From Candidatus Komeilibacteria bacterium CG11_big_fil_rev_8_21_14_0_20_36_20 (GTDB taxonomy: Bacteria; Patescibacteriota; Patescibacteriia; UBA1558; GWA2-36-10): DNA of 64,000 nucleotides. The stretch covers positions 31,296-95,295 of the forward strand of contig PCWQ01000007.1 in NCBI GenBank assembly GCA_002787405.1, read 5' to 3'. A model generated the notes under the pieces. It searched no databases and was not told the origin of the DNA. It saw only the letters and a list, made by a program, of their open reading frames with translations. The position numbers and the translations under genes were made by a program. Position 1 is the stretch's first letter, and every line of letters begins with the position of its first letter. Below, in pieces: positions 10,255 to 40,498 of this stretch.

Positions 10255-10268
10255 TAATACTTCTTCAA

Positions 10269-11980: not shown

Positions 11981-12976
11981 TTATCGTGCCCCTTTTATAG
12001 CAATCACCACCATATGAGATGATAAACCATTATCTGCTAACCACTTCTGAAAAGAATCTGAGTATTTTTCCCATTCATCAATTAAGACCCGCTTGAAAAA
12101 TGCTTGTTTATCAAGTGAAATAACCCCCTCTCTTACTTTGTTTCTAACTAACTCAGCATCTAATTTACCAGGAGTTTTAATCTCCAAAACTTCAAAACCG
12201 TTGGTTTCTAATAATAAAGAAATGGATTCTGGATGAAAATAATTCAAATGATCTGGAGCAGTTGTATTATCAGAATGCTCTCCTAAAACTAATAAATCAA
12301 AACCTTTAATATTTGGGGTTGTTAAAAATAATAATCCACCGTCATTTAATTTATCTGATATGCTCTTAAGATACTCAATTGGATTAAACACATGCTCTAT
12401 GGACTCAATACTTGTCGCCACATTAACTTTATTAATATTCACATTTTCAATAAAACCCTCTACGACCTGCAAACCTTTCTGACGACAAGACTCTGCTGGA
12501 CTTGGGTCTGGCTCAACAGCAATTACTTGTTTAAATTTTCCTGTCTTTTTTATCTGCTCACAAAAAGTGCCACAACCAGCCCCAACATCCATGAATGATT
12601 CAGTAGGAATTTTATATTTTTCACAAAATTTAATAATTTCCTTCACCCGTGGCATAATAATATGCTTTATTCTAGCTGCCTCTGATTGAGGATAAACGTT
12701 TTCGTTCCAAAATTTTTCAGCTAAAGAAGTTTTATAATGTTCAAAGACTATTTGCTGCGTCGGTCGAGGATTTACAAAAACTGTTTCGCAAATATTACAT
12801 TGTACAAAAATAAAGCCGTCTCTTTTATAAAAAAAATTGTACTCTTTCTTGCCACAGGCAGGACAATTTATCTCTACAAATTGATCTTTCTTTGACAATA
12901 CCCTATCCTGATCTAATTTGTATAATCTCCTACCCTCGGCACGAAAATTATCCGCCCTGATATCATTTTCCTTCAT
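11981..12976 (-). CDS. SAM-dependent methyltransferase with an N-terminal Cys4 zinc ribbon (sugar C- or O-methyltransferase-like)
   Basis: A zinc-ribbon-like CPACG...CNIC is followed by the MTase motif DVGAGCGTFCEQI. 331 aa. Confidence 0.65.
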   Translation of the reverse strand: MKENDIRADNFRAEGRRLYKLDQDRVLSKKDQFVEINCPACGKKEYNFFYKRDGFIFVQCNICETVFVNPRPTQQIVFEHYKTSLAEKFWNENVYPQSEAARIKHIIMPRVKEIIKFCEKYKIPTESFMDVGAGCGTFCEQIKKTGKFKQVIAVEPDPSPAESCRQKGLQVVEGFIENVNINKVNVATSIESIEHVFNPIEYLKSISDKLNDGGLLFLTTPNIKGFDLLVLGEHSDNTTAPDHLNYFHPESISLLLETNGFEVLEIKTPGKLDAELVRNKVREGVISLDKQAFFKRVLIDEWEKYSDSFQKWLADNGLSSHMVVIAIKGAR

Positions 12977-13001
12977 TACTAATAAATTAATATTTATCGA
13001 G

Positions 13002-14105
13002 CTATTTGATTGGATCTTTCAATATCCACTCCCCTATTTTATTCTTTTTCCACATTGGTCCCCTAAATTTTTCAGCTACATTCCAGAATTTATCTAAAGT
13101 GATACCGATATAATCACAAAACTGTTTGATAAATTTCACGCCACATTTACCATCATATTCCCTAACGAGTTTGACGCCCTCTTCTCTGGTTATTCTACCA
13201 GCCCAGATATCAGCGCAAGCTTCATCGGTGGCAAAACCATAACCAAGTTTCATATGTTTTAACATCTGATTCATAATTCCCGTATCATCATCAAGGGCGT
13301 GATATTTTGTATAACGTCCCAACTCCAAAGCATCATCGGTTCTAATATGTAGACCTCTATTAATGGCAAACATTGCATGCTCATGTGGCGACCATCTCTT
13401 ATAATAGCCAAGATATATCATTTTGACTCCTGATTGTCTTATCTCCTCTTGAGATGGATAATGATAAGGGATTAGATCTTTAGCTGTCACACCATCACAA
13501 AGAAGATGGGATGAGTCACCCGAAAAACCTAAAGTATTTTGTTCATTAATTCTTGATGCATCACCACCATTTTTGTCTTCAGTGTCATCATCTAAAGTCG
13601 TAGTTTCAATATCAAAAATAACTAAGGGAACTTTATACATAATAGCTGCTCTCACCGGCGTTGCATATAAAGCATATTCCGAAGGCTTAACAGGGTTCCC
13701 CCAAGTATAAAAAGCCATTTTAGCCACTTTTTGACAGACCTTAGGATTAGGTCTAAACATAAAACAATCAAAGCCCATTTTTTGTAAATTATTGATATTA
13801 TGTCTGCCTATTTCAGTGATACCGTCAGGAACCATGTTGGCCAGCAGAACATTAAGACCAAGTACATCTCTGGCATAAAGCGCCATATAAGTACTGTCTT
13901 TGCCACCACTCACTCCAACCACACAATCATATTGAGCCCCTTTGTTTTTAGCTTCCTGAGCTATGTCTATAAGCTGTTTCCTCCTTCCCTCCCAGTCTAT
14001 CTTATCCAAGGATTCATAATAACGACAAAAGTTACAAACACCCCTGTCATCGAAATTTATACCTGGCCTTGTTTCAGGTACAACACATTTTGTACAATAC
14101 CTCAT
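13002..14105 (-). CDS. N-acetyl sugar amidotransferase (WbpG/PseA-like PP-loop ATP pyrophosphatase)
   Basis: An N-terminal Cys-rich region (MRYCTKCVVPETRPGINFDDRGVCNFC) and the PP-loop VVGVSGGKDSTYMALYA fit the WbpG/PseA family. Confidence 0.75.
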   Translation of the reverse strand: MRYCTKCVVPETRPGINFDDRGVCNFCRYYESLDKIDWEGRRKQLIDIAQEAKNKGAQYDCVVGVSGGKDSTYMALYARDVLGLNVLLANMVPDGITEIGRHNINNLQKMGFDCFMFRPNPKVCQKVAKMAFYTWGNPVKPSEYALYATPVRAAIMYKVPLVIFDIETTTLDDDTEDKNGGDASRINEQNTLGFSGDSSHLLCDGVTAKDLIPYHYPSQEEIRQSGVKMIYLGYYKRWSPHEHAMFAINRGLHIRTDDALELGRYTKYHALDDDTGIMNQMLKHMKLGYGFATDEACADIWAGRITREEGVKLVREYDGKCGVKFIKQFCDYIGITLDKFWNVAEKFRGPMWKKNKIGEWILKDPIK

Positions 14106-14986: not shown

Positions 14987-16417
14987 TTATCTTTTCATGA
15001 CTAATTTTAAATAATGCATAATATAAATAAAGCTATCTTTAGTGTTTTTCACTTCATATTTTAAATTCCTTCTAATAGATGGCACGTCTTTGATTATTAA
15101 AAAAATTCTATTTGGCGGCAATTTAATCAATAAATTTACTAGCCATTTCAAATTCGGGAAACGAATTAAAAGATAACATAATTTATCTAAATTTATTAAT
15201 TGTCTTATATTATCCTGTTTTATAAGCGAATTATTGCTATCGGCGGTTGAACCAGCATTTTTGTAGGTAATTATATCTTTAAGATAATTATTATCAAGGC
15301 AATAATTCCCTATCTGAGTTTTAGGATAAGGTACCAAGACATTAGAGTTAATATCATCTAAATCAAGCTGCCTACATAAATTTATAGTCTCATAAGCATT
15401 ATCCATAGTTTCTCCTGGCCAGCCAAATATAATATCTGCGCCTATTCTAATTTGATATTTTTTTAACAGTTGACAAGCTGCTATTATTTGCTTATTGCTC
15501 ATGTTACGATTTAATAGCTCTTTTCTTAAAGTTTCATTGCCAGTTTGGATACCAATAACAAGCTTATCGCAACCAGCTTTTTTTAAAAGAGCAATATATT
15601 CTTCACTAATATCTTCAACTCTGGCATAAATTATAAATCCTGGCAATTTTTTTTCTATGTACAATTTCAAAAACTCTCTTACTTGTTCTAATTTTACATT
15701 AAAAGTTGCATCTTGAAACCTAGCCCATTTCAAACCATATTTATCTTTAACATATAATAGCTCCGCTATGAGCTTTTGAGGCGAATATAAGCGAAAATGA
15801 GTCCCGCCTCCATCCCTATAAAATTGATTTATCCAATTAGTATAGCAATAGGAACATCGAAAAGGGCAACCTCGTGATAAAATGAACGGTTTTGTCTCTA
15901 ACTTTCTTAATTTCTCATATTTCTTAAAATAAATATCTCTATCAAAAGAAGGTAAATGTTCTATATTATTAACATATGCTATGGCTGTATTTTTTTCCAC
16001 TTGTCCATTTTTCTTAAACCAAATTCCTGGAATATTGAAAAAATTTTCTTTCTTGTCTAGTCGATTTAAAATTTCTAGACAAGCTAACTCGCCGTCACCC
16101 ACACACATTAAATCTATACAATCCTCATTAACTATTTCCGGAAAAACTAAAGTAAATGCCCCGCCAATTAAAGTTAAAATATCTTTATTTATCTTCTTTA
16201 TCTCTCTCAAAATTGCAAGAACATCTTCCTGCTCTCCGATACATAAACTACAAGCAACTATATCGGGCTTAAAATTCATTACTGATTCGTAAAAACTATC
16301 TTCTTCCTCTAAACAAAAAACATCAACTACATGACCATGCTCCTTCAAAACTGAAGATATGGCCATGACGCCTAAATTTTCTAACAAGATATGCTGAAGA
16401 AAAGCAATTCTGGCCAT
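14987..16417 (-). CDS. cobalamin-binding radical SAM enzyme (class B radical SAM)
   Basis: An N-terminal B12-binding-like domain precedes the radical SAM motif CPFRCSYCY. The start codon overlaps the stop of the upstream paralog. Confidence 0.8.
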   Translation of the reverse strand: MARIAFLQHILLENLGVMAISSVLKEHGHVVDVFCLEEEDSFYESVMNFKPDIVACSLCIGEQEDVLAILREIKKINKDILTLIGGAFTLVFPEIVNEDCIDLMCVGDGELACLEILNRLDKKENFFNIPGIWFKKNGQVEKNTAIAYVNNIEHLPSFDRDIYFKKYEKLRKLETKPFILSRGCPFRCSYCYTNWINQFYRDGGGTHFRLYSPQKLIAELLYVKDKYGLKWARFQDATFNVKLEQVREFLKLYIEKKLPGFIIYARVEDISEEYIALLKKAGCDKLVIGIQTGNETLRKELLNRNMSNKQIIAACQLLKKYQIRIGADIIFGWPGETMDNAYETINLCRQLDLDDINSNVLVPYPKTQIGNYCLDNNYLKDIITYKNAGSTADSNNSLIKQDNIRQLINLDKLCYLLIRFPNLKWLVNLLIKLPPNRIFLIIKDVPSIRRNLKYEVKNTKDSFIYIMHYLKLVMKR

Positions 16418-18150
16418 TAAAGAGCCCCCCCTTCCAACAAATTCAATTCCTTGTTTATATCAATTTTAAAATGCTTAAAATAACTTCTAGAAGTCTCACT
16501 TGTCTTTAATATATCTTGAGCTTTATGCCAATTATCTTTAACCTTTAATAAATCCCCTTTGATTTCATACGCTTTGCCGAGAACATAATAAGCAATCGCA
16601 TGATCTGGTGCTAATTCAATCACTCCTTTAAAATCTCTAATTGCCTGATCTACTCTATCAGAATTTAAATTTCTGGAATTTATAAAATTGACCTCGAGAT
16701 TGGCTAAATAATTTTTTTCCAAAATATATTCTTTAGAAAAATTTGGCCAATCTACATTACTTGTAACCAAGGGATACCCATATCTTATACTATCAGCCAC
16801 AATATATCCTTTCTGGAGACACTCTTCAAATATTCTTGACCCAGGAATTGCTTGATAATTCCTAATTAAAGCCCAATCTAGATCTAAAGATCGAGCAAAC
16901 TCCAAAGTTTCTTCAACTTCTTTTTTAGTTTCAAAATGAAAACCCGAAATAAAAAAACCAATAATATAACCCTTGCCTAATTTTCTTATTCTTCTAACAA
17001 CATTTTTTGATATCTCTAAATTTAACACTTTGCCAATTTCTTTAAGTGTTTTCTGGCTGCCAGATTCAAAAGCAAGATTAAAGATAGCTATGCCACTATC
17101 ATACATCTTTTTTATTATTTCTTCATCTAGAAAATTTACACCTAAACCTCCTCCAACTCCCCAGCGAATATTCAAACCTCTTTTGATTATTTCATCCATA
17201 ATAGCCACAGCTTTTTTGGTGCTAACTGTAAAATTATCATCATTAAAAACTATTGCATTAACACCATATTCCTTAATAAGTAATTCTATCTCATCTACCA
17301 CATTTTTGGAATTACGATAACGTATTGATCTACCCCAAATGTGTTTTGCTGAACAAAAAGAACAAGAATATGGACAGCCTCGAGAAGCAGTCATAATGCC
17401 TATTTTAGCATTGTTACGACCTAAAACACGAAAGAGAAAATTTCTGCTTAAATTTCCATATTCTGAAAAATCATTGGGCATAATATAGTCATCCGGCGAT
17501 ATGTTAGTTCTGTCAGGAAAAGGCAACTCGTCTAAATTTTTGATTAAAAATTTATTTTCTTTAAATATAATATTTTTATCATCTCTATAAGCTATTCCAT
17601 GCAAATTTTCTACTCCTTTTTCTTTATTTAAAAAAAGAATTAAATCCATAAAACAAATCTCACCTTCTCCAATTATTGCATAATCTATATTATTATCTTT
17701 TAAAGCATCTGAATAAGAAATTGTAGGATAACTGCCGCCTATGACAGTGATTATGTCTGGTGATATTTTCTTTATAAGTGTACATGTTTGATGAACAATA
17801 TGTGATGTAGAATGAAACAAAGAACTCACTCCTATAATATCTGGGGAAACTTCTTCTATTTTATCTTTTAATAAACCCCAAGCTGCAGACATATCAACCT
17901 TCCCCTTAGAAATAAAATGCTTCATAGCCATTAAATTAGCATCAAAAATTTCAATCTCTACATCATTAATCTTACTTTGCAGATAAGAAGAAATATAACC
18001 AAGACCCAGTGGTGACTCTGCAAACTGACCACCAGATATTACCGTCTCGTAATTATAAGAATTGGTCTCTATAATAAATGGATTTATTAATAAAATTTTC
18101 TTGACTCTAGGCATAATTTTTATATAGTTTTTTTGATTTCCAGACAGCAT
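16417..18150 (-). CDS. cobalamin-binding radical SAM enzyme with a C-terminal TPR-like extension
   Basis: A B12-binding-like N-terminal domain precedes CPYSCSFCS. The C-terminal roughly 100 aa are TPR-like. Confidence 0.8.
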   Translation of the reverse strand: MLSGNQKNYIKIMPRVKKILLINPFIIETNSYNYETVISGGQFAESPLGLGYISSYLQSKINDVEIEIFDANLMAMKHFISKGKVDMSAAWGLLKDKIEEVSPDIIGVSSLFHSTSHIVHQTCTLIKKISPDIITVIGGSYPTISYSDALKDNNIDYAIIGEGEICFMDLILFLNKEKGVENLHGIAYRDDKNIIFKENKFLIKNLDELPFPDRTNISPDDYIMPNDFSEYGNLSRNFLFRVLGRNNAKIGIMTASRGCPYSCSFCSAKHIWGRSIRYRNSKNVVDEIELLIKEYGVNAIVFNDDNFTVSTKKAVAIMDEIIKRGLNIRWGVGGGLGVNFLDEEIIKKMYDSGIAIFNLAFESGSQKTLKEIGKVLNLEISKNVVRRIRKLGKGYIIGFFISGFHFETKKEVEETLEFARSLDLDWALIRNYQAIPGSRIFEECLQKGYIVADSIRYGYPLVTSNVDWPNFSKEYILEKNYLANLEVNFINSRNLNSDRVDQAIRDFKGVIELAPDHAIAYYVLGKAYEIKGDLLKVKDNWHKAQDILKTSETSRSYFKHFKIDINKELNLLEGGAL

Positions 18151-18915: not shown

Positions 18916-21084
18916 TTAATGACTTAAATCAATGACTATTTTATTTCTAAATAAAGAATCTGATGAACTCAATAATTTTTCCTCTTTATTAGCTATAACA
19001 ATTATCTCTGAAAATTTGACAAGCTCTTTCAAGTTATCCGTCAATAATGAAGATATATGTGGAATATGATTTATAATATAGTTTTTATTAGCTCCAAATA
19101 TTCTTGCCATATAAATATTTTTATCAAATATTGACACTTCAATCCCTTTGCCTATTAAATGCTCTACTATATCTATCATGGGGCTGTTTCTTAAATCATC
19201 TGTATTTTCTTTAAACGATAAACCAATTATCCCAATTTTCTTTTTATTAAAAGATAAAATAGTCTTTAAAATATTCTTTATATGCATGTTGTTGCTATTT
19301 AAAATATTAAATATCACCGGCAATTCTAAATCTCTCTTTTTAGCTCTGTTAACAAAAGCATTCAAATCTTTAGGAAGACATGAACCACCAAAGGGTTTGC
19401 CTGGCTTTAAATAATACGGTGATAAATTTAATTTTCTATCTTTGCAAAATATCTCCATAACTTTATGAGAATTAACACCAGCTGACTTACAGAATGTATC
19501 AATTTCATTAGCAAATGAAACCTTAAGAGCATGAAAAACATTATCAACATATTTAACAGTCTCTGCTGTTTTAATGTCAGTAACCATTTTCTCGCCAGAA
19601 ACATTATTATACAATAAATCCATCAAAAATTTGCCATCCTTTTCATCTTCTGCTCCAATAATTATTTTAGGGGGATTATAAAAATCAAAAATAGCTGAAC
19701 CCTCTCTTAAAAACTCCGGATTATGACATAATTTAATATTCTTGAATACTTTTTCTCCACATATTTTTAATAACATTGGCTTAATTATTGAATCAATTGT
19801 CCCTGGTAAAATAGTACTCCTAATTATAATAGTATGTTCCGAATTCTTTACCAATAAAGCTTTTGCTATTGTCGTAATAGCTTTTTCAATACTTGTATAA
19901 TCAATGCTGCCATTAGCTAAAGATGGCGTACCCACGCAAATCACGCTAATAGCCGTATTGATTATTGCAAAATCAACATCATCGGTGGCTTTTAATCTTC
20001 CGCACTCGACAGCGCTTTTTATTAAAGGACCTAATTCTGTTTCTATTAATGGGGCAACTCCTTGATTAATGGCTCCGATTTTAATAGGATTAACATCAAC
20101 ACCGATAATTTCAAAATTATTCTTTGCTAAACAGGCAGCGGAAACACAACCAACGTAGCCTAAACCGAAAATGCTGATTTTATTTATTTGATCTACGGAG
20201 GGCAAGCTTATTTTATCAACCGGCTCGCTTACCTTGTGTACACTAGAGAAATCCTGATGCTGCATCAAACTTCTAATTGCTAATTGCTCCTCTTCTTTCA
20301 AGGATTTAAAATAACCATCATCTCTTTTTATGTCACTATTGATTTCTAGCAACTCCGGATAATCTTTTAATAAATTAAGTATATCTTTCATGAAAAAAAT
20401 ATTTCTATCTTTGTATAAATTCTTATACACTTCTCTGACAAATTTTAAATCGCGTTCTTCATCAACTGTCCAACGCATTTGAGAATAATCCTGATCACAA
20501 TCATCTCCCTGAAAAGTATTAATTTTAAAGATTTGAGAATTATTCCAAATATAAGGCGTCACATGTTCTCTCTCGGATTTTAACTTTGCTTCTTTCCATG
20601 CTTTTTCTAAAGAACTAAAATTAAATACTTCCGTGTCTAAACCATCAGGATATGCTGAATCCATTGATTTATTAGTATGAGCTGTGCTAACATAATCAAA
20701 ATTATTTTTTAAGAAATATTCTATTGTTTTATCTATGATATTTGGATCTATCAAAGGACAGTCGCCTGTGATCCTTACAATGATATCAGTTTTATATTTC
20801 TTTGCTGCTTGATAATATCTATCTAAAACATCTGATTCGCTTCCCGTATAAACATCAATGCCTATTTGAGACGCGACTTCAACTAACTTCTGATCTATCA
20901 GCTTGTCACTAGTGGCTAATATTACTTTATCAATTTTACTAGTGCTTTTGACCCTATTTACTACATGCCAAATCATTGGTTTGCCAGCAATATCAGCTAT
21001 TACTTTATTAGGCAACCTTTCCGCACTCATCCTAGCTTGAATAATTGCTACTATCATAATATTTGTGGGGCTAGACCATAACAA
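18916..21084 (-). CDS. bifunctional fusion of an N-terminal PseF/SpsF-like acylneuraminate cytidylyltransferase and a C-terminal UDP-sugar 6-dehydrogenase
   Basis: The N-terminus (IIQARMSAERLPNKV) is characteristic of the CTP_transf_3 family. The C-terminal half carries the NAD-binding motif GLGYVGCVSAACLA and the catalytic-Cys motif FGGSCLPKD of the UDP-glucose/GDP-mannose dehydrogenase family. Confidence 0.75.
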   Translation of the reverse strand: MLWSSPTNIMIVAIIQARMSAERLPNKVIADIAGKPMIWHVVNRVKSTSKIDKVILATSDKLIDQKLVEVASQIGIDVYTGSESDVLDRYYQAAKKYKTDIIVRITGDCPLIDPNIIDKTIEYFLKNNFDYVSTAHTNKSMDSAYPDGLDTEVFNFSSLEKAWKEAKLKSEREHVTPYIWNNSQIFKINTFQGDDCDQDYSQMRWTVDEERDLKFVREVYKNLYKDRNIFFMKDILNLLKDYPELLEINSDIKRDDGYFKSLKEEEQLAIRSLMQHQDFSSVHKVSEPVDKISLPSVDQINKISIFGLGYVGCVSAACLAKNNFEIIGVDVNPIKIGAINQGVAPLIETELGPLIKSAVECGRLKATDDVDFAIINTAISVICVGTPSLANGSIDYTSIEKAITTIAKALLVKNSEHTIIIRSTILPGTIDSIIKPMLLKICGEKVFKNIKLCHNPEFLREGSAIFDFYNPPKIIIGAEDEKDGKFLMDLLYNNVSGEKMVTDIKTAETVKYVDNVFHALKVSFANEIDTFCKSAGVNSHKVMEIFCKDRKLNLSPYYLKPGKPFGGSCLPKDLNAFVNRAKKRDLELPVIFNILNSNNMHIKNILKTILSFNKKKIGIIGLSFKENTDDLRNSPMIDIVEHLIGKGIEVSIFDKNIYMARIFGANKNYIINHIPHISSLLTDNLKELVKFSEIIVIANKEEKLLSSSDSLFRNKIVIDLSH

Positions 21085-21710
21085 GATCTAATAACCAGAT
21101 GGCGATGGATATTAAATCCATTTTTATTAATTTTTTCTGGATCTACATAACGTCCTATATAAACCCTATCACCATTGTGGTCCTTGTCAGAACACCAAAT
21201 AAAATCGTGCGCCCATAAAATCTGACCCTTATTTAATAAATAATAAGAAAAGAAAGTAAAAGCTGCTAAAATGGCTGAAGGGAAACCTTCCTTCATTTTT
21301 AAATCATTGTGTATTGTTTCAGGACTTTTACCACGACTATCTTCTGTAACATTTTTTTTAATTAAATACCATTTAAAATCTAAAACTTGATCATTAGCGA
21401 ATTTCTCATTCAAATACCAGTCCTGACTATAAAAACAGGGCTCTGATTTATCAGGCTGCCAACCAAAAATTGATCGCAGTTTGTTGATTGTTAATTTTTG
21501 TCCATCTGAGCTTTCGGGCATTCCTAGAATCAAAATATAATCATGTTTAATATTAATTTGCTCTAGATAATCCACGCTAAAAGGAACTTTTGGTATTGAT
21601 GATCTAAAGTTAAACGTATTAGATATTTTAAACTCGGAACTTATCGTCTTAAGCTCTTCCGGCCCAATAAAATCCGAGCCCATTATTTTTTTTATTTGTT
21701 GAAAATCCAT
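21054..21710 (-). CDS. hypothetical protein
   Basis: A 218-aa ORF in operon context with no recognisable motif. Confidence 0.4.
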   Translation of the reverse strand: MDFQQIKKIMGSDFIGPEELKTISSEFKISNTFNFRSSIPKVPFSVDYLEQINIKHDYILILGMPESSDGQKLTINKLRSIFGWQPDKSEPCFYSQDWYLNEKFANDQVLDFKWYLIKKNVTEDSRGKSPETIHNDLKMKEGFPSAILAAFTFFSYYLLNKGQILWAHDFIWCSDKDHNGDRVYIGRYVDPEKINKNGFNIHRHLVIRSCYGLAPQIL

Positions 21711-21716
21711 ATTTAA

Positions 21717-22310
21717 CTACTTTTGTTTCTCTTTCCAACTTTGATAATCCACTGCTGCTCTAATACTAACCAGATGGCCCTTTTTTCTATATTGTTTTAT
21801 TTTTGCCAACTCCACCCCTAAAAGTTGCAAGCGAGTTAGATTAGAATAACTAGTTTGTTCAAACCAGGAAAGGTCGCGAGCAGGCGCATTAAATATTTGT
21901 ATTTTTAATCTTGCCTGCTTCATTGCTTGTAAAAATGTAAGAAATGCTCTATCTTGATGAAAATGTGAAGCAACCAAAATTATTTTTTTCCACTTTTTAT
22001 TCCTTACTATCTTCATCACCTCCACCCCCTGATCATAGGTGTTCTGAGAATTATCTTCTATAACAATTTTATTTTTTGGTACACCTGCTTTTAATAATTT
22101 TTTAGCTAATAGACCAGCAGGAATAGTAAACTGCGGTACACTAGTGCACCCGCCTGAGACAACAATATTTTTTGCTAAGCCATCTTGAAATATTTTTAAG
22201 GTCTGTTTGAATCGATTATAACCATCTCCTTCTAACCAAATAACAGCATCTGATTTTTTAACAATGTCATTACTAGTGATGGCTATTAATGCTACCTCGT
22301 TAAATTTCAT
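21717..22310 (-). CDS. hypothetical protein (possibly DUF218/YdcF-like)
   Basis: 197 aa. The IVVSGG stretch is reminiscent of DUF218; the similarity is weak. Confidence 0.35.
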   Translation of the reverse strand: MKFNEVALIAITSNDIVKKSDAVIWLEGDGYNRFKQTLKIFQDGLAKNIVVSGGCTSVPQFTIPAGLLAKKLLKAGVPKNKIVIEDNSQNTYDQGVEVMKIVRNKKWKKIILVASHFHQDRAFLTFLQAMKQARLKIQIFNAPARDLSWFEQTSYSNLTRLQLLGVELAKIKQYRKKGHLVSIRAAVDYQSWKEKQK

Positions 22311-22325
22311 AATTATTTTAATTAT

Positions 22326-23438
22326 CTAATTAAGATCTCCCCAATATATTGCTTCTCTGGCTTTAATATCATTCTTAGCTCTGCGTCCAACTATAGTATC
22401 CTTATGTTTTGGAAGAATACCTACCGCTGGTCTTAATTCAATAATATCATCATCTTTAATAACTTCGCCTTTATTAATGTCTTTCTTGGCGTGCAATGAA
22501 CGACGTTGAACAATTACCGTTTCTGCTTCTTCTTCAACCACATCTTTCACGGTACTGCCAAGGGCTTTCTCTAATAATCTTATTTGCTCAACCATTTTTT
22601 TGAATTTTTGTGCTTCCATTGAATGAGGATGATCTGGTCCATTGTCTTTATTGCTCAAAGTAAAATGTTTTTCAATCACCCTTGCTCCTAAGGCGACTGC
22701 TCCTAAAACCACTAAACTGCCAGGGGAATGATCAGAATAACCAGTCATAACATCAAAAGTGTTTTGATACGTTTTTAATACATTAATATTAGCACTCTCA
22801 ACTTTTGATGGATAATTAGTAATGCACTGCAAAAGCACTAAATCATTATTGCCTGTTGATTTGATAATTTTAACCGCCTCATCTATTTCAGCGAGGGTGC
22901 TATCTCCAGTTGACAGCATTATTGGTTTATTTTTCTTAGCAATGTATTTTAATATTTCATGCCAAGTGATATCTCCTGAACCAATCTTAAAAAAATCAAC
23001 TCCTAACTCATCCAAAAGATCTACAGCTGCAAAATCATAAGGAGCAGAAGTAAACAAGACACCTATTTGCTGACAATAATCAAAAAGTTCTCTATGCCAT
23101 TCTCTTGGAAATTCAGCTTCCTTAAAAACTTCATCAATAGGCTTATCCCATGTTCCATGCACTCCCTTTAACTTCATTTTGGAAAAACTTGGCCCAGAAA
23201 CAATCGTATCAGCCGAAAAAGTCTGAAACTTTACTACATCAGCACCAGATTTTTTAGCAGCCAAGGCTAACTTTTTAGCTTTTTCTAAACTACCATCAAA
23301 ATTTGCTCCAATATCAGCTATAATTAAGGTAGAGTGACCTTCACCAATAAATTTATGAGCAATGGGAATATTTTTAGAAAATTTACTCATACACTTTACT
23401 TTAATAATAATTTCTTTAAATCTTTTGCTGTCATCCAC
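22326..23438 (-). CDS. nonulosonic acid synthase (NeuB/PseI/LegI family, with C-terminal SAF domain)
   Basis: LIIADIGANFDGSLEKAKKLALAAKKSGADVVKFQTF is typical of NeuB-family aldolases. 370 aa. Confidence 0.85.
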   Translation of the reverse strand: MDDSKRFKEIIIKVKCMSKFSKNIPIAHKFIGEGHSTLIIADIGANFDGSLEKAKKLALAAKKSGADVVKFQTFSADTIVSGPSFSKMKLKGVHGTWDKPIDEVFKEAEFPREWHRELFDYCQQIGVLFTSAPYDFAAVDLLDELGVDFFKIGSGDITWHEILKYIAKKNKPIMLSTGDSTLAEIDEAVKIIKSTGNNDLVLLQCITNYPSKVESANINVLKTYQNTFDVMTGYSDHSPGSLVVLGAVALGARVIEKHFTLSNKDNGPDHPHSMEAQKFKKMVEQIRLLEKALGSTVKDVVEEEAETVIVQRRSLHAKKDINKGEVIKDDDIIELRPAVGILPKHKDTIVGRRAKNDIKAREAIYWGDLN

Positions 23439-24367
23439 TCTTTATTTGTGTCGCTAACAAAACCAATGTTAGACTCCATCTTCTTCCCCATATCTAAAAA
23501 CTTTTTAAAATGTTCTTCCTTATTATAAGACTCGGACAAAACAACAAAATATTTATCTAACTCTACTGTATGTCTGGTTTCTTCTTTAGTTACCAGTGTT
23601 TCGTGTAATTTTTCACCAGGCCTGATGCCAATGATTTCCCTAGGGACGTTAGGCGCTAGGGCGTTAACTAAATCAACTAGTTTCATACTCGGAATTTTTG
23701 GTATAAAAATTTCTCCTCCCTGCATATTCTCTAGAGTAAATAACACTAATCTAAAAGCTTGCTCTAAGGTTATCCAAAATCTAGTCATCCTTTCATCAGT
23801 TATATATACCTTTTCAAGACTTGATTTCTTCAAAAGATGTTCCACAATACTTCCCCGACTGCCTATAACGTTGCCGTATCTAACACAACTAAACTTAGTT
23901 TTATCAGTGGCGTAAGAATTACCACTGCTAAATAATTTTTCTGCACAAAGTTTGGTCGACCCGTATAAATTGACCGGCTGAGCAGCTTTATCAGTCGAAA
24001 TTAATACCACTCTCTTAACTTGCTGATCAATAGCGGCATCAATAACGTTCTGGCTGCCTAGAATATTCGTTTTTACTGCCTCAAATGGATTATATTCTAA
24101 TGTTGGAATTTGTTTTAAAGCCGCTGCATGAATAATAATATCAACCCCACGAAAAGCCCGTTGCAATCTCTGTAAATCTCGCACATCACCAAGAAAAAAT
24201 CTTAACCTATCATCAGATATTTCTTTTTTCATTTCTGACTGCTTTAATTCATCACGGCTGAAGACGATTAATTTCTTTAGTTGATAATTATCAAGTAAAA
24301 ATTTTGTAAAGCTTTTGCCAAAAGATCCGGTTCCACCGGTGACTAAAACGGTTTTATTGTCTAACAT
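23396..24367 (-). CDS. UDP-GlcNAc 4,6-dehydratase (PseB/CapD-like SDR)
   Basis: The N-terminus reads MLDNKTVLVTGGTGSFGKSF...IVFSRDELKQSEM, as in PseB/FlaA1. Confidence 0.85.
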   Translation of the reverse strand: MLDNKTVLVTGGTGSFGKSFTKFLLDNYQLKKLIVFSRDELKQSEMKKEISDDRLRFFLGDVRDLQRLQRAFRGVDIIIHAAALKQIPTLEYNPFEAVKTNILGSQNVIDAAIDQQVKRVVLISTDKAAQPVNLYGSTKLCAEKLFSSGNSYATDKTKFSCVRYGNVIGSRGSIVEHLLKKSSLEKVYITDERMTRFWITLEQAFRLVLFTLENMQGGEIFIPKIPSMKLVDLVNALAPNVPREIIGIRPGEKLHETLVTKEETRHTVELDKYFVVLSESYNKEEHFKKFLDMGKKMESNIGFVSDTNKEWMTAKDLKKLLLK

Positions 24368-24414: not shown

Positions 24415-25836
24415 CTATTTTAATGCCTCAATTACTCTCTTGGTCATATTAGACATACTCTCTTGTCTACTAATTTTTGTTGGTAAATCAGTGGGATTGA
24501 TAATAAAAGCATCAAAATTAATATTATCGACGCTTTTCAAATAATTAATAATATCCTGCTGATTTATACGAAAACCATTTTTAATTCTATTAAAAGCCAC
24601 CTTACAACTTTCAACATTATTCACTCTAAAAACACCAGGACAATCTCTATACCAGGGAAGTCCGAAGATAAGAGGTGGCTTAGAATTTAATAATGCTTCC
24701 CAGCCAGCTGTCCCAGTAACTGTAGCCACCGCTTGTGCTTTATAGATAAGATCAAAGGTACTAGTCGAAACTGGGATTAAAGACACATTCTTTAATTTTA
24801 AAATCTTTGTATAATAACCTGGATAGCGACCATCTGCATAATTTATTCCATGAAACCACCATTGAGCAGGGTGTTCCTTTGTATATATAACCCAATCATC
24901 AGGCAAGGCGCTACTCAAAACCTCTAACATAAGAATTTGATCAACAAATACATCGCCCATAGGGCTAGTTGTATATTCGGGCTGATATTGCAGTGGTACG
25001 TAAATAAATTTTTTGGATAAATCCGGAACACATTGAAATTTAAGATATTCTTTTTTGGTATTTTGTTTTAATCTCTTATTAAGATGCCCCATGGCCGATT
25101 TCAAAATCTTCCCCCGCTTAATATGCTTACCTGTAATTTTTAATTTAGTTAAAAATAAATTGACCCCAGTATACTGCCTCCTTCCTTCTTTCATATATAT
25201 TGGCGTCGCATCGCGATTCTTATCCACACCTTGAATATAGTGTTCTCGTAAATCATTACTAAGATCTTCGATGGAAAAATGTTTACCTCTATTACTCTCT
25301 ATTTCCTTACATAAGACCTGACTACCCTTACGAAAGTCTTCGTACATGATAGTTTTACCAAACTGCCATGTTGATTCGAACATTAGTGTTTTTATTCTGA
25401 ATAATTTTGCTAAGGAATAAATCACATAATCATGCGATGAATGAGGTGGAAAGGCATAAACAATAGCATCTGGTTTATATTTTTTAAGAACGCCATTCCA
25501 ATATTGTAAAAGGTTGTAATATAAATGTTTGCGTTCATCAACCCTCTGCATGCCATGACACTTTCTATTCATCATGGTTAAAATTAAAGATTCATCATGA
25601 TATAATTTCTCTATTAAATCAACACCCGGCGCTGGAAATTGCGATGTATCAACACCCGGCGCTGGTTTAGCGACCCAAGCATCTGGATGATTATGAAAAA
25701 TAATTTCAGGATATTTCTTTTCTACTCCCCCAGAAAACCCTAGCCAATAAACAACCTTATGAGAATTTCTTTTTAATTCTAATAGTAATTCTTCTATTTC
25801 TGGCCCACATTGTGTCCAACTCAAAAGTATACGCAT
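24415..25836 (-). CDS. capsule-polysaccharide-biosynthesis-like protein (KpsC/KpsS family, Capsule_synth); candidate retaining Kdo or nonulosonic-acid transferase
   Basis: The segment YVPLQYQPEYTTSPMGDVFVDQILMLEVLSSALPDDWVIYTKEHP matches the Capsule_synth core pattern (vLfPLQ...vvKeHP). Confidence 0.5.
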   Translation of the reverse strand: MRILLSWTQCGPEIEELLLELKRNSHKVVYWLGFSGGVEKKYPEIIFHNHPDAWVAKPAPGVDTSQFPAPGVDLIEKLYHDESLILTMMNRKCHGMQRVDERKHLYYNLLQYWNGVLKKYKPDAIVYAFPPHSSHDYVIYSLAKLFRIKTLMFESTWQFGKTIMYEDFRKGSQVLCKEIESNRGKHFSIEDLSNDLREHYIQGVDKNRDATPIYMKEGRRQYTGVNLFLTKLKITGKHIKRGKILKSAMGHLNKRLKQNTKKEYLKFQCVPDLSKKFIYVPLQYQPEYTTSPMGDVFVDQILMLEVLSSALPDDWVIYTKEHPAQWWFHGINYADGRYPGYYTKILKLKNVSLIPVSTSTFDLIYKAQAVATVTGTAGWEALLNSKPPLIFGLPWYRDCPGVFRVNNVESCKVAFNRIKNGFRINQQDIINYLKSVDNINFDAFIINPTDLPTKISRQESMSNMTKRVIEALK

Positions 25837-25841
25837 ACAAA

Positions 25842-27623
25842 CTAATTATTTCTTAAATTATATATTTTAAAAAAATAAGAATTTTTATTTTTTAATAATG
25901 CCTTTGGCCTTCCTTGTTCAATAATTTTACCTCCACTTAAAACAATCAATCTATCCGCATCAGTTATCGTTGATAATCTATGCGCAATCACTAGAACTGT
26001 CATATAACCTTTAAGATGATTAATAACTTCTTGTATTTCTTTTTCCGATTCAACATCCAAAGCGCTCGTTGCTTCATCAAAAATCAATAATTGTGGATTT
26101 TTAACCAAAATACGCGCAATAACAACTCTTTGACGCTGTCCAGCTGAAAGTAAAATACCGCGCTCGCCAATTATAGTATCAAACTTATCAGGATAACCTT
26201 GAATAAAATTATAGATACTAGCCATCTTAGCAGCTTGTTCTACTTCTTGATCACTAATGGAGTTATCATAAAATTTAATATTATTGGCAATTGTATCGTT
26301 TATTAAAAATATATCTTGAGAAACATAACCAATGTTCTTTCGCCAATCATCTAAACTAATGGAATTAATATTTTTTCCGTCCAACAAAATTTGTCCATCC
26401 TTAGGATTAAATAAACGCAAAATCAAATCAATTAACGTGGTCTTTCCAACTCCCGAAGGACCTATAATACCAATCATCTCCCCTTTCTTGACTCCAAAAT
26501 TAATATTAGACAATATTTTTTTATGATGCTCATAATAAAAATTTATATTTTTAAATTCTAAATTTTTATTAAACAAAAAGGGAGCTGATCCCTTATTAAT
26601 TTCTTTGTTAGCGACAGCTTTTTGTTCGTAACTTAATACACTATTCAAATATGGAACAAATTCATTAATAGTATTTAAATTGCTTTGTAATTGCTGAAAA
26701 TATACAAAAATTCTTTCTATTAAATATATTATTGCCGCTAGAGACGCAAAATTAAAATCGGGTGATTTATAGAAAAAAGCAAAGATTAAACAAATAAAAA
26801 TTATACTAACAGGTTGAATAAGAGAATATGAGATGGCCTGCAATAAAAGAATTTTTATTGATATTTTTTTTAACTTATTAAAATAATCTTGCCCCTTTAA
26901 CAATACTTTATTCTCAACAGACATTCCTTTGACTGTTTTAATCCCCATAATATTCTCATTAACATAATGCGCTATCTCCTTATTACTATCTGACATCTTT
27001 CTAGAAGATACTTTAATCTTATAAATTATCGGTTTTAAAAAAAGAAACAGTAACATTCCTATGGCGAAAACCAGTGCAGTAATAGTCATAGAAATGTTTA
27101 TTGCTACTAAAGTATAAATCAATAAACTAGTTATTTGCATTATAGCGGCACTAATTTGTCTTAATAAAACCGCACTGGCACGCACATCTGTCATTATGAC
27201 AGTTTCTAGATAGCCTAACTTTTGCTTTAATAAATATGGCCAGTCGGCCTTAAGAGTTTTATCTAATAATAAGCCCCTGGTTTTTTCTTCATAATCCGAA
27301 GTTATTTTTATCTTAATATAATTAAAAATAACTGTTGCAACTGTTTTTAAAAAAAACAAAATACTAATAAATATTAGTAGCCATATTACACTTGGGGTAA
27401 TATGAATAAACGAGAAAAAATTACCAATAATTCTAGATATCAAATTATCGCCAGATTGATCCTTTAAGATAAAAGAAAATAAAGGAATTAAAGTATTAAT
27501 TCCAATACCTTCCAACAAACTTGCTATAAAGCCCAATATTACTAAAATTATGATTTGTGATTTATATTTTCCAAACGCTTCTTTTGATAATTTTAGAATT
27601 GTAGTTACTCTATTATTTCTCAT
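25842..27623 (-). CDS. ABC exporter, fused permease and ATPase (MsbA/PglK-like)
   Basis: Six N-terminal TM helices are followed by Walker A (GPSGVGKTT), the ABC signature (LSAGQRQRVVIAR) and Walker B (LLIFDEATSALD). Confidence 0.85.
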   Translation of the reverse strand: MRNNRVTTILKLSKEAFGKYKSQIIILVILGFIASLLEGIGINTLIPLFSFILKDQSGDNLISRIIGNFFSFIHITPSVIWLLIFISILFFLKTVATVIFNYIKIKITSDYEEKTRGLLLDKTLKADWPYLLKQKLGYLETVIMTDVRASAVLLRQISAAIMQITSLLIYTLVAINISMTITALVFAIGMLLFLFLKPIIYKIKVSSRKMSDSNKEIAHYVNENIMGIKTVKGMSVENKVLLKGQDYFNKLKKISIKILLLQAISYSLIQPVSIIFICLIFAFFYKSPDFNFASLAAIIYLIERIFVYFQQLQSNLNTINEFVPYLNSVLSYEQKAVANKEINKGSAPFLFNKNLEFKNINFYYEHHKKILSNINFGVKKGEMIGIIGPSGVGKTTLIDLILRLFNPKDGQILLDGKNINSISLDDWRKNIGYVSQDIFLINDTIANNIKFYDNSISDQEVEQAAKMASIYNFIQGYPDKFDTIIGERGILLSAGQRQRVVIARILVKNPQLLIFDEATSALDVESEKEIQEVINHLKGYMTVLVIAHRLSTITDADRLIVLSGGKIIEQGRPKALLKNKNSYFFKIYNLRNN

Positions 27624-27644: not shown

Positions 27645-27932
27645 TTACCATTTATTAATTTTATTCACTACTTTTTTCTTGGCTGTCAAATAATATTTAG
27701 TCGCCTTTTTTTCTGCTTTAGGGGATATCAAACGTAATATTTCCTTACCCAAAATTCTATATTGTCCGCCAACTTTGTTAGCCCTAATAAGTCCCTTTTT
27801 TAACATGCGCTTAATAGTGCTGTTACTTATTTTTAACAGCTCTTGTGCCTCACTGGTAGTGTAAACAATGTTTGGTCTTATTTCTCTATTATCCATAATA
27901 ATATAATACACTGAAGTATCAAATGGTGTCAA
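27645..27932 (-). CDS. excisionase-family HTH (HTH_17) DNA-binding protein with a Lys-rich tail
   Basis: The sequence TTSEAQELLKISNSTIKRMLKKGLIRANKVGGQYRI has the MerR/excisionase-type HTH pattern. Confidence 0.6.
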   Translation of the reverse strand: MTPFDTSVYYIIMDNREIRPNIVYTTSEAQELLKISNSTIKRMLKKGLIRANKVGGQYRILGKEILRLISPKAEKKATKYYLTAKKKVVNKINKW

Positions 27933-34743: not shown

Positions 34744-35553
34744 TTACAAAGAATTATACAATTTACTAATTATTTTTTGTGCATCTTCATCTACATTTAG
34801 ATATTTAGTTACAACTATTCGTAAAAATCTGATAGCTACCAAAGTGATATAAATAATAAAAAACCATTTTAAGAAATGACTACTATTAAAGAAATCAACA
34901 ACGTAAACCAGTAAAAACATAAATATCATTAAATCATTTCTAGCGATGATAGTTGAAAATTTAAGAATCTTTAATAGCTTTAATAATGCTCTATTAGCTG
35001 GTGTGATTTTCCTTTCCTGATTATGATATTGCCTAACCCATTCTATCTTCTTGAAAAACAACATAAAATAGATAAAAGTTGAGCTGATAGTATTAAAAAT
35101 AATTAAAACTACAACTAAAAGAGTTAAAAATAGATAAATATTGTCTTGATAAGTAAAAAATAATTTTAGTCCCAGACCAGTTAAAATACTCGGCATAAAA
35201 ACAAAATGGTAAACTTGTTCTAATAATCCCCCCCTTAAGGTGTCTCTTTTTAGATAACGAGCTAATTCCCCATCAACCTTATCCAAAAGAATACTCAGAA
35301 TAATTAAAATGAAAGCTAAAATATTTATACGAAAACTATGGTGGCGCAGCGTTAGGCCTCCAAGTATTATTAATATAATATTCAAGACGGAAATAAAATT
35401 AGGGTTTATTTTTTTATTAGTAATTAACAAAAAAAATTTTGTAATGTAAATAGAAATATCACGATATAATAAATATCCTGCCATACTAAACTTGGGTGGT
35501 TTATTTCTTTTACTAGCTTGGCAAATTTCTTTTAACTCTTTAATTGATTCCAT
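34744..35553 (-). CDS. polytopic membrane protein with a degenerate CDP-alcohol phosphatidyltransferase-like motif
   Basis: LDKVDGELARYLKRDTLRGGLLEQVYH matches D-x2-DG-x2-AR-x8-G-x3-(D>E)-x3-(D>H). Confidence 0.4.
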   Translation of the reverse strand: MESIKELKEICQASKRNKPPKFSMAGYLLYRDISIYITKFFLLITNKKINPNFISVLNIILIILGGLTLRHHSFRINILAFILIILSILLDKVDGELARYLKRDTLRGGLLEQVYHFVFMPSILTGLGLKLFFTYQDNIYLFLTLLVVVLIIFNTISSTFIYFMLFFKKIEWVRQYHNQERKITPANRALLKLLKILKFSTIIARNDLMIFMFLLVYVVDFFNSSHFLKWFFIIYITLVAIRFLRIVVTKYLNVDEDAQKIISKLYNSL

Positions 35554-36875
35554 TACTTTGTATATCTAAAATTAATTATAGGTGTTAAACTAAAAATTTT
35601 CTTCAAAATATTATTTTTCTCCAAAGCGGTCCAGACATATTCAGCTGCTTGACTCTGCTTTAAACTAACTGATTCTTTGTGCCGGAAAATTGAAAAATTA
35701 ATCTCATTCTTTAAAGCTATTTTTCTAACCTGATGATTAGTGTATTGATTTTTATTTTGCAATTCAGTAGTTGAAAAATTACTAGTGGCTTTTCCATAAC
35801 CATGGTCAGACAATTTTAATATCTCATTATTAGGTATTCCTCGGCCAACATAACTTTTCAAATTATATAACCCTGACAAAACCACCGGCTGATCATCCTT
35901 GACTAAATTAGCATTATTGGCATAAAGAAAATAAATACTGTCTTCTTTTTTTATTTCTTTGACAAAATCATGAGTGTGATCCGAAAAATAATTTAGATCA
36001 GTAATTTGATTCAAAACATCCTGCAACAACATAAAAGTAGTCAAACGAGTAGCCAAACCGTAATTTATCAAAACCTTAAGCGTATCTCTAAAAATATTAT
36101 AATATTTATTACCTTGATTAAGGCCGATAAATTCTGACCGATAAACTATTTTATTTAAAATTTCTGAATTAAGCACAGAGCTTGGGCCCCCTTGACCCAT
36201 ATGATAAAGAATAAAAATCTGCCCTTCTTTAACTCCCCATTTGCTGGCCTGTTCTTGGTCAAAAATCTCGTCAGCAACTTGAACTTCAATAAAATGATTA
36301 CCTTGCAGAAAACTCCCAATATTATTCCTTAAATATTGATGGCCATTTTTCCAATCATCATTAAAATAATCAAAAATATCTTTATTGATATTTGCTACTT
36401 GGGGAGAATCTACATTAAATATATTATCAACTGATTGTTTAAATTTACTCTGCAAATATGCCGGCCCTTGCAGACACACTTCATAAAACTCCTTCCGACT
36501 TAAAGAATATTTATTAGGCAAAGGACGTCTTAATTTAGAAAATATTCCTTTAATAAGGCCTTTATTAAAATTTAATAAAGCTTTTTCCAGCTTATCTATG
36601 GTCTCGGTGCTATAACTCAGTTCTGTTTTGATTAAAGACTTTCCGCAATTAATATTAACGGCGCTTAATTGGGGATACAAAATATCTCTACTTAGCGAAC
36701 CAAAACTGGATGGGATATATCCTTTGTACCCCATTCTGGCTCCTTCTTTTTTTAAATGTATATCAGGCAAAACTAAGAGCTCTTCTACGCCAGGCAAACT
36801 CGCTATCTCCTGAATTCTTTGCAAAAGTTTTGTTGATAATTTTTCCTTATCAATGGTAAATTTTATATTTGCCAT
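35553..36875 (-). CDS. divergent RtcB-family protein (RNA 3'-phosphate ligase fold) embedded in the glycan operon
   Basis: RtcB motifs were found in order: LPGVEELLVLPDIH (PDxH), AVNINCGKS (the D/N-I-N-C-G metal site), GNHFIEVQ, and HMGQGG in place of HSGSRG. Confidence 0.6.
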   Translation of the reverse strand: MANIKFTIDKEKLSTKLLQRIQEIASLPGVEELLVLPDIHLKKEGARMGYKGYIPSSFGSLSRDILYPQLSAVNINCGKSLIKTELSYSTETIDKLEKALLNFNKGLIKGIFSKLRRPLPNKYSLSRKEFYEVCLQGPAYLQSKFKQSVDNIFNVDSPQVANINKDIFDYFNDDWKNGHQYLRNNIGSFLQGNHFIEVQVADEIFDQEQASKWGVKEGQIFILYHMGQGGPSSVLNSEILNKIVYRSEFIGLNQGNKYYNIFRDTLKVLINYGLATRLTTFMLLQDVLNQITDLNYFSDHTHDFVKEIKKEDSIYFLYANNANLVKDDQPVVLSGLYNLKSYVGRGIPNNEILKLSDHGYGKATSNFSTTELQNKNQYTNHQVRKIALKNEINFSIFRHKESVSLKQSQAAEYVWTALEKNNILKKIFSLTPIINFRYTK

Positions 36876-40493: not shown

Positions 40494-40498
40494 ATTCT

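Follow-up and report, generated by a model that had tools for sequence, protein, structure and literature searches.

A Capsule_synth-superfamily protein of a Komeilibacteria bacterium, encoded with nonulosonate genes on one side and an ABC exporter on the other, is a predicted retaining CMP-nonulosonate transferase

Few transferases of nonulosonic acids have been characterised; they include KpsS1 of glycosyltransferase (GT) family GT118, the Maf proteins and enzymes of Tannerella forsythia. KpsS1 of Acinetobacter baumannii, a characterised retaining transferase of the pseudaminic acid (Pse) Pse5Ac7Ac, is the founding member of GT118 (Walklett 2024, as cited in PMC12887879). The PF05159 (Capsule_synth) proteins KpsS1, KpsS2 and Gtr59, with others from Escherichia coli O108 and O165, Photobacterium, Bacteroides and Sphingobium, adjoin modules for Pse, legionaminic acid (Leg) or acinetaminic acid (Aci) (Kenyon et al. 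2015, PMC4487303). [quoted passage not shown] KpsC, WbbB (GT99) and KrkA (GT140) have a C-terminal QXXXD motif, in which Asp is the nucleophile and Gln binds the carboxylate, an HP motif and a Glu base in the N-domain; the residue roles in KpsC come from PMC10148158 and the elements conserved across the clan from PMC12887879. Here we describe a gene at 24415–25836 (minus strand) in a 64,000-nucleotide stretch of contig PCWQ01000007.1 (positions 31,296 to 95,295; hereafter the window) from Candidatus Komeilibacteria bacterium CG11_big_fil_rev_8_21_14_0_20_36_20. Its product, as yet uncharacterised, most likely adds a Pse-like nine-carbon sugar to a surface glycan ahead of export; enzymes of this type are already known from Acinetobacter and E. 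coli, and this one is a relative in Patescibacteria. We estimate a probability of roughly 0.7 that it is a cytoplasmic retaining transferase that uses a cytidine monophosphate (CMP)-nonulosonate and acts on a lipid-linked glycan.

The target gene is an ATG-to-stop open reading frame (ORF) that fills 24415–25836 exactly and encodes 473 amino acids (aa). The ORF is real, and its conservation is far beyond chance. Its GC content is 34%, against 33% for the window, and it is the sole copy of its family within the 64 kb. The product is a soluble protein of ~54 kDa with no hydrophobic segment of membrane-spanning length. The regions and residues discussed below are these:

24415–25836, minus strand: target gene, predicted retaining CMP-nonulosonate glycosyltransferase of the Capsule_synth superfamily, KpsS1/GT118-like lineage, 'PH/QPE' subclade
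24601–25029, minus strand: Capsule_synth-matched region (aa 270–412), C-terminal Rossmann-like, CMP-sugar-binding domain
24976–24990, minus strand: Q283-Y-Q285-P286-E287, with E287 on the nucleophilic Asp of QXXXD in an ungapped MAFFT block
24868–24879, minus strand: K320-E321-H322-P323, the HP motif (CMP-phosphate binding, general acid), placed by alignment
25441–25446, minus strand: P131-H132, near-invariant N-domain motif and candidate catalytic base, 3–4 residues past the YE position
25591–25593, minus strand: E82, alternative candidate general base, present in 50/50 close members and 122/150 of the wider family

PF05159 is the sole Pfam family matched by the target (37.3 bits, gathering score 20, E 2.9e-9), and the match is limited to aa 270–412, equivalent to profile positions 140–281 of 310. 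The same region is what aligns to both KpsC modules and to KpsS. An NCBIfam scan of the target returned only a sub-threshold match to BFO_1060 (NF046086; 13.8 bits, cutoff 200), and membership of that family was ruled out. The T. forsythia transferases of Pse/Leg derivatives (Tanf_01245/BFO_1060) are genetically supported, carry an HP motif and are encoded near sugar biosynthesis genes.

Alignment with MAFFT L-INS-i places E287, without gaps, on D160 of the N-terminal module of KpsC (KpsC-N), D488 of its C-terminal module (KpsC-C) and D237 of KpsS, the references being those of E. coli CFT073. In this block IVLVVDQTFND, IILVPGQVEDD and YYLAVLQVYND, respectively, stand over FIYVPLQYQPE (aa 277–287) of the target. 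Further blocks align K-x-HP with KEHP (KVHP, KPHP and KHHP in the KpsC/KpsS modules), GFEA with GWEA and FGQPWY with FGLPWY. The spacing from E287 to H322 is 35 residues, compared to 34–38 in KpsC/KpsS. An alternative register, from hhalign to KpsC-C, would set Q285 on the Gln and Thr289 on the Asp; it was dropped because the shared strand V-P and the HP spacing favour E287. Q285-P286-E287 is invariant among 50 close members (50/50) and present in 147–149 of 150 diverse representatives, with Glu in 149/150. K320-E321 is near-invariant (146/150). A sequence-only reading of this DNA had assigned the core strings, which run to VIYTKEHP (aa 316–323), to Capsule_synth, and this holds, over aa 270–412 only. 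It had also pointed to HP and 'QxxxKE' as motifs to look for. HP is present, as KEHP; 'QxxxKE' is absent, the motif of the literature being QXXXD and its counterpart here Q283-Y-Q-P-E287.

In place of models for GT99, GT107 and GT118, we compared the target with solved structures and with reference genes from E. coli. Only KpsC modules were significant in a search of PDB sequences (E 3e-5 with the single sequence, 3.6e-7 with a profile), and WbbB was at noise level (E 1.4). Neither WbbB nor KrkA, both retaining Kdo transferases, has significant sequence similarity to the target. The similarity to GT107 is confined to the C-terminal domain. With the family alignment, hhalign gave 96.5% over 108 columns for KpsC-N, 70.7% over 112 for KpsC-C and 58.7% over 80 for KpsS, all at target aa ~274–422, and the phmmer and hmmsearch matches to KpsC/KpsS cover 63–125 residues, short of a whole module. 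The target also differs from KpsC/KpsS in having Glu for Asp at the nucleophile position, an unconserved Gln, one module instead of two and no membrane anchor, and its donor is probably a nine-carbon Pse-type sugar rather than Kdo.

These comparisons bear on whether the target could be a retaining β-Kdo transferase like KpsC/KpsS that builds a Kdo-containing linker. The C-terminal similarity spans ~63–125 residues, against ~340 columns for the proteins of Pse clusters described below, and the Asp of QXXXD is Glu in the target. The genes around it are PseB and a NeuB-family synthase, not those for CMP-β-Kdo, and no scan of window ORFs matched the Kdo-8-phosphate synthase (KdsA) family. Patescibacteria are not known to have a lipopolysaccharide/Kdo pathway. 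Membership of GT107 was ruled out on the Asp/Gln mismatch in QXXXD, the C-terminal-only similarity and the NeuB/PseB context, and we consider a Kdo transferase quite improbable.

Better relatives were found by tblastn of annotated plasmids. One is a 'hypothetical' protein of Rhizobium sp. WL3 (FVA81_RS03360; 28.5% identity over 92% of the query), whose gene cluster includes a NeuB-family synthase and neuC, along with two acylneuraminate cytidylyltransferases, WbuX/WbuZ/HisH and a permease/ATPase pair of the ABC (ATP-binding cassette) type. In Mariluticola, the relative L1P08_RS16205 comes after pseB, pseC, pseF, pseG and a NeuB-family gene, and the family alignment matched this protein in hhalign at 99.8% over 344 columns. 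A Klebsiella pneumoniae relative is encoded two genes past a complete pseBCFGI operon. This gene led us to the E. coli O165 O-antigen cluster, which reads galF, pseBCFGI, wzx, a 477-aa hypothetical protein, wzy, two GT2 genes and gnd. The protein beside the O165 Pse module was described as KpsS1-like (Kenyon et al. 2015, PMC4487303) and, by elimination, is the 477-aa hypothetical protein (AKK22_RS16675). A Pse derivative is a chemically established constituent of the O165 O-antigen (Senchenkova 2016, as cited in PMC7685785).

Comparison with KpsS1 was made through this O165 relative rather than the KpsS1 sequence. The family alignment matched it in hhalign at 99.1% (E 8e-19) over 341 columns, with the first ~108 residues unaligned; the O165 protein scored 85.7 bits against the family hidden Markov model (HMM), and BLASTP to the target gave 24% identity over 191 residues. 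Ranked by family-HMM score, the Rhizobium (253 bits), Mariluticola (134), Klebsiella (93) and O165 (86) proteins all stand above KpsC (43) and KpsS (15). As judged by the O165 relative, the closest characterised lineage is therefore KpsS1/GT118-like and not GT107.

KpsS1 and the target are both of the PF05159 superfamily and both adjoin a Pse-type module. The O165 proxy and the target family share Glu at the nucleophile position (HPE and QPE, respectively), K-[DE]-H, GxEA and the helical insert, and by analogy the predicted chemistry would be the same, a retaining transfer from a CMP-nonulosonate. Gtr59 (A. baumannii KL12/KL63), a predicted retaining Aci/Leg transferase and in 2015 a novel family outside CAZy (PMC4487303), is by its description likewise a PF05159 protein that adjoins a nonulosonate module. 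The proxy differs in its candidate base. KpsS1 has a YE motif with a putative general base, Glu132 (PMC12887879), and Y127-E128 of the O165 protein fits this report, whereas the target reads Y127-A128 and has the invariant P131-H132 a few residues later. The setting differs as well: that of the proxy is Wzx/Wzy, and that of the target is Patescibacteria, an ABC exporter and a non-canonical pathway without PseC, PseG or PseH.

The Rhizobium and Mariluticola proteins share the PH, QPE and KEHP signature of the target and, like it, have Pro-His and no YE. Their genes lie beside NeuB-family synthases, cytidylyltransferases and WbuX/WbuZ/HisH, with an ABC transporter in Rhizobium. Unlike the target, they accompany canonical NeuC, PseG or PseC, and their identity to it is about 28% or lower. 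In the O165 and Klebsiella proteins the corresponding motifs are HPE and K-D-H. Glu at this position is thus common to the KpsS1-like lineage and not peculiar to proteins of the candidate phyla radiation (CPR), and the comparison shows that Glu, not Asp, is the rule at the predicted nucleophile position in the Pse-cluster branch of the clan.

On the Klebsiella plasmid, the KpsS1-like gene is flanked by a 'hypothetical' gene upstream and a DUF6418 gene downstream. These occupy the wzx and wzy positions of the O165 cluster (regions compared: L086, 5936–7198 and 8571–9896; L087, 10376–14386), and the transferase is 42% identical to the O165 protein. It appears that the plasmid bears a Pse-containing O-unit module resembling that of O165.

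In the target model the fold is a modified GT-B in which a helical insertion lies between the domains; it is nearest to KpsC and WbbB, in line with GT107. The best Foldseek E-values, however, were to 2-epimerases and NeuC. We therefore considered whether the target is not a transferase but an analogue of PseG/NeuC, supplying the nucleotide-sugar hydrolase/2-epimerase that a non-canonical nonulosonate pathway would otherwise lack, since no such gene was found in the window and 2-epimerase folds match. The Foldseek TM-scores run the other way, with 0.46 to KpsC and 0.2–0.3 to epimerases, and the PDB sequence search matched the target to KpsC only and not to PseG, NeuC or 2-epimerases. Family members also co-occur with a canonical pseG (Klebsiella, Mariluticola and E. 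coli O165) or neuC (Rhizobium) in four proteobacterial clusters, on which ground the idea was dropped. Adjacency and fusion to an ABC exporter, described below, suit glycan assembly better than sugar synthesis. We regard a role as hydrolase or epimerase as very improbable.

The target sits in a minus-strand glycan cluster of ~40 kb. Its start lies 5 nucleotides past the stop codon of the gene for an ABC transporter, and its end 47 nucleotides before a PseB gene. The neighbouring genes that matter here are listed below:

27645–27932, minus strand: HTH_17 small DNA-binding protein, 95 aa, at the head of the cassette (Pfam PF12728, E 2.3e-12)
25842–27623, minus strand: MsbA/PglK/HepA-like ABC half-transporter, 593 aa (NCBIfam matches, all below equivalog cutoffs)
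23396–24367, minus strand: PseB, UDP-N-acetylglucosamine (UDP-GlcNAc) 4,6-dehydratase (inverting), step 1 of the Pse-type pathway (TIGR03589, 462 bits, cutoff 407.75)
22326–23438, minus strand: NeuB-family nonulosonate synthase
21717–22310, minus strand: DUF218 protein, conserved cassette member (Pfam PF02698)
21054–21710, minus strand: conserved 218-aa cassette protein, with orthologues in six of the related loci (L001, L002, L008, L016, L017, L047)
18916–21084, minus strand: CTP_transf_3 cytidylyltransferase (aa 12–219), presumed CMP-nonulosonate synthetase, fused to a nucleoside-diphosphate (NDP)-sugar dehydrogenase
13002–14105, minus strand: WbuX-type N-acetyl sugar amidotransferase (TIGR03573, 318 bits, cutoff 203)
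8094–9407, minus strand: class-III aminotransferase, recurrent in the cassette
4855–6219, plus strand: Bac_transf initiating phosphoglycosyltransferase, polyprenyl-phosphate-linked primer (Pfam PF02397, E 1.3e-68)
47034–49307, minus strand: Wzy_C (O-antigen ligase/PglL-like) membrane protein, with a second copy at 2625–4739, minus strand

The cluster downstream of the target also holds methyltransferases, two B12-binding radical SAM (S-adenosylmethionine) enzymes, one GT2 and pieces of a carbamoyltransferase. Farther out are seven GT4 genes, two further B12-radical SAM genes and one MraY/WecA-type transferase. All other glycosyltransferases in the window are thus of the GT4, GT2, Bac_transf or MraY/WecA type, families that use nucleotide-diphosphate sugar donors, and the target is for this reason the only plausible user of a CMP-sugar in the cluster.

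The location proposed by the sequence-only reading, between nonulosonic-acid genes and an ABC exporter, is thereby confirmed, with PseB and the NeuB-family synthase downstream and the ABC half-transporter upstream. Of its proposal that a CMP-activated ulosonic acid is transferred to a lipid-linked glycan, the nonulosonate part is supported, and the Kdo part is not, given the NeuB-type synthase, the lack of a KdsA match in the window ORF scans and the relatives in Pse clusters. It had named KpsC and KpsS as the characterised members, and KpsS1 (GT118), as judged by its O165 relative, is nearer. It called the combination of a Capsule_synth protein and a Pse/Leg-type pathway not well documented, but such combinations were reported across several phyla in 2015 (PMC4487303), and KpsS1 has since been characterised.

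The family is large. A word-indexed search returned 559 clusters at 90% identity, nearly all of ~475 aa, from metagenome-assembled genomes of Patescibacteria and named 'hypothetical'; these relatives are 43–54% identical to the target over the full length. Nearly all of the listed homologues carry PF05159 in precomputed Pfam annotation, and relatives are encoded in 156 species-representative genomes. An exhaustive profile search of 1.84 billion representatives (50% identity) gave 2,770 matches at E<=1e-30, a number that rose to 9,685 with the threshold relaxed to E<=1e-3. A phage collection contained no match.

We surveyed gene context by tblastn of the window proteins against 79 loci and counted in the 37 whose flanks both extend for 9 kb or more. 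An ABC gene is adjacent on the same strand in 29/37 loci. Within 10 kb, a PseB-like gene was found in 32/37, NeuB in 26/37, a cytidylyltransferase in 22/37 and one or other of the last two in 31/37. A class-III aminotransferase is present in 21 of the 37 and a WbuX-type amidotransferase in 13, the latter also in the Rhizobium cluster. The loci of three divergent family members were inspected (L001, L002 and L003). L001 and L002 share the order HTH_17, ABC, target family, PseB-like, NeuB, DUF218, a ~218-aa protein matching no family, cytidylyltransferase and class-III aminotransferase; L003 has these cassette genes rearranged and lacks the ~218-aa protein. The HTH_17 gene holds the same position as in the window in all three, and the DUF218 gene does so in L001 and L002.

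A distant metagenomic member, P0252 (821 aa), joins an ABC ATPase domain (aa 76–207) to a full copy of the family (aa 317–814). This Rosetta-stone fusion supports a coupling of the family to ABC export. By Joint Genome Institute naming, the ATPase part is a polysaccharide/polyol-phosphate transport ATPase.

The tie to the exporter raises the question of the acceptor. With the same chemistry, the enzyme might add, in the manner of KpsS, a first ulosonic acid to a membrane lipid (a phosphatidylglycerol-type anchor) or to a protein, and so start or cap a glycoconjugate for the ABC exporter. The tight adjacency in 29/37 loci and the fusion in P0252 would suit such a role, KpsS and KpsC act on an anchor lipid where capsules are made by an ABC-dependent route (PMC10148158), and a CDP-alcohol phosphatidyltransferase is encoded in the window (34744–35553). 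However, the exporter is an MsbA/PglK-type half-transporter and not of the KpsMT or Wzm-Wzt type, and the Bac_transf primer enzyme, the many GT4s and the two Wzy_C proteins are typical of polyprenyl-linked assembly. The closest relatives, such as that of O165, belong to Wzx/Wzy O-antigen units, and the target lacks a membrane-anchoring segment. We judge a lipid or protein acceptor unlikely.

For a transferase acting on a polyprenyl-linked glycan, homology, fold, motif register and synteny together suggest the following donor, acceptor, residue roles and stereochemistry. The donor would be a CMP-activated, nine-carbon, modified Pse-type sugar from the adjacent PseB, NeuB-like synthase and cytidylyltransferase, probably with amidino and methyl tailoring. 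Since PseB is the inverting enzyme, the sugar is expected to be of the Pse type and its C5 substituent axial, and such sugars have been argued to suit this enzyme clan (PMC12887879). The acceptor would be a polyprenyl-linked glycan assembled by the Bac_transf, GT4 and GT2 enzymes of the cluster. By analogy with KpsC, WbbB and KpsS1, transfer may proceed by double displacement. H322 of KEHP would protonate the CMP phosphate and aid departure of CMP, while E287 of QPE would attack C2 and form a covalent sugar–enzyme adduct. A base of the N-domain (H132 of PH, or E82) would then activate the acceptor hydroxyl, with retention of the anomeric configuration. The finished glycan could be flipped or exported by the PglK/MsbA-type half-transporter encoded upstream, and a Wzy_C protein may pass it to a final acceptor.

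Several observations weigh against a retaining CMP-nonulosonate transferase. Neither the Asp nor the Gln of the canonical QXXXD is kept: Glu replaces the former and H, N or Q the latter (position 283 is Gln in only 6/50 close members). Position 322, His in the target, is His in 109/150 of the wider family and Asn in 27/150, and the first ~108 residues of the target match nothing characterised. Scans of the window ORFs found no homologues of PseC/DegT, PseG/NeuC or PseH, and the synthase reaches neither the NeuB nor the PseI equivalog cutoff; for these reasons the identity of the sugar is uncertain. Neither NeuB nor a cytidylyltransferase lies within 10 kb in 6/37 loci. One such exception that we inspected (L009) has genes of the early Pse/Leg type as far as the examined flank extends. 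Another, from Magasanikbacteria (L027), has a second Capsule_synth paralogue and TagD/TagF-like genes, with no NeuB within 10 kb, and may use another donor or make a teichoic-acid-like polymer. In that locus (12501–14042 and 16245–17884), the family gene is followed by a divergent 513-aa Capsule_synth paralogue, a TagF-like Glyphos_transf protein and a TagD-like cytidylyltransferase.

The TagD-like and TagF-like genes of L027 bring in an enzyme that would also release CMP, a CDP-alcohol phosphotransferase (CDP-glycerol or CDP-ribitol) resembling TagB/TagF. The weak NCBIfam match to BFO_1060, a family reported with a TagB-superfamily domain, points the same way, and L027 is the one locus where such genes lie beside a family gene. 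The target has no match to the TagB/TagF CDP-glycerol glycerophosphotransferase family (PF04464, Glyphos_transf). This is the least probable of the alternatives.

The sugar pathway in the cluster is non-canonical. DUF218, the 218-aa protein and the class-III aminotransferase recur as a trio in L001, L002, L008, L016, L017 and L047, and may provide a non-canonical route to a Pse-like sugar. Searches of Pfam, NCBIfam and the PDB gave nothing for the 218-aa protein, even at E<=10. The WbuX-type enzyme is likely to carry out an acetamidino modification of the sugar. More tentatively, the PH/QPE group, with its thousands of representatives in mostly Patescibacteria and also Alphaproteobacteria, might merit a CAZy family of its own, with a Glu nucleophile and with H132 in place of the YE Glu as base. 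Its CPR members might cap a lipid-linked glycan with a heavily tailored Pse-like sugar bearing amidino, carbamoyl and B12-radical-SAM-derived methyl groups, with DUF218, the 218-aa orphan and the class-III aminotransferase replacing PseC, PseG and PseH in its synthesis. The transferase would then be a physical partner of an ABC exporter of the PglK/MsbA type, and in some organisms is fused to it. We hold this extended proposal to be doubtful.

Contact with the host cell surface underlies the lifestyle of Patescibacteria, yet their surface glycans are scarcely described, and no paper was found in the literature that links Patescibacteria/CPR with nonulosonic acids. The target offers a soluble candidate with defined residues (E287, H322, H132 and E82). 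Its compact and conserved cassette of regulator, ABC exporter, transferase and sugar pathway could be used to test for display of a Pse-like sugar in CPR. A practical benefit is better annotation for thousands of proteins now named 'hypothetical'. In concept the novelty is modest, since Proteobacteria already provide established cases of both the gene pairing and the chemistry; the assignment itself will not surprise specialists, and its distinguishing features are the PH/QPE subclade signature and the unusual pathway and export context.

Other features of the cluster were observed. In the fused protein at 18916–21084 (minus), the dehydrogenase part is complete (aa 302–720), and in related loci the cytidylyltransferase is free-standing (~253 aa). 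The four B12-binding radical SAM enzymes form two tandem pairs (14987–18150 and 39057–41941, both minus) beside several SAM methyltransferases, which suggests C-methylation or other unusual tailoring of the sugar. A carbamoyltransferase seems to be split at 9286–11090 (minus) into a 273-aa N-terminal piece and a 322-aa ORF that carries the remainder of the N domain plus the C domain; its homologue in L002 is a single protein of 596 aa, so that a frameshift or an error of sequencing may explain the split. A neighbouring 145-aa ORF at 11511–11948 (minus) has only the N-terminal carbamoyl-phosphate-binding domain of aspartate/ornithine carbamoyltransferase. The two proteins with Wzy_C/O-antigen-ligase domains (704 and 757 aa) flank the cluster and are candidate PglL-like oligosaccharyltransferases or polymerases. 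The CDP-alcohol phosphatidyltransferase-like gene, which weakly matches archaetidylinositol-phosphate synthase, lies amid the glycan cluster with an RtcB-family RNA-ligase-like gene (34744–36875, minus), an odd placement for RtcB. An IS200-like Y1 transposase is encoded inside the cluster at 46339–46908 (minus), and a 1,267-aa ORF that matches no Pfam family lies just past its edge (50191–53994, minus).

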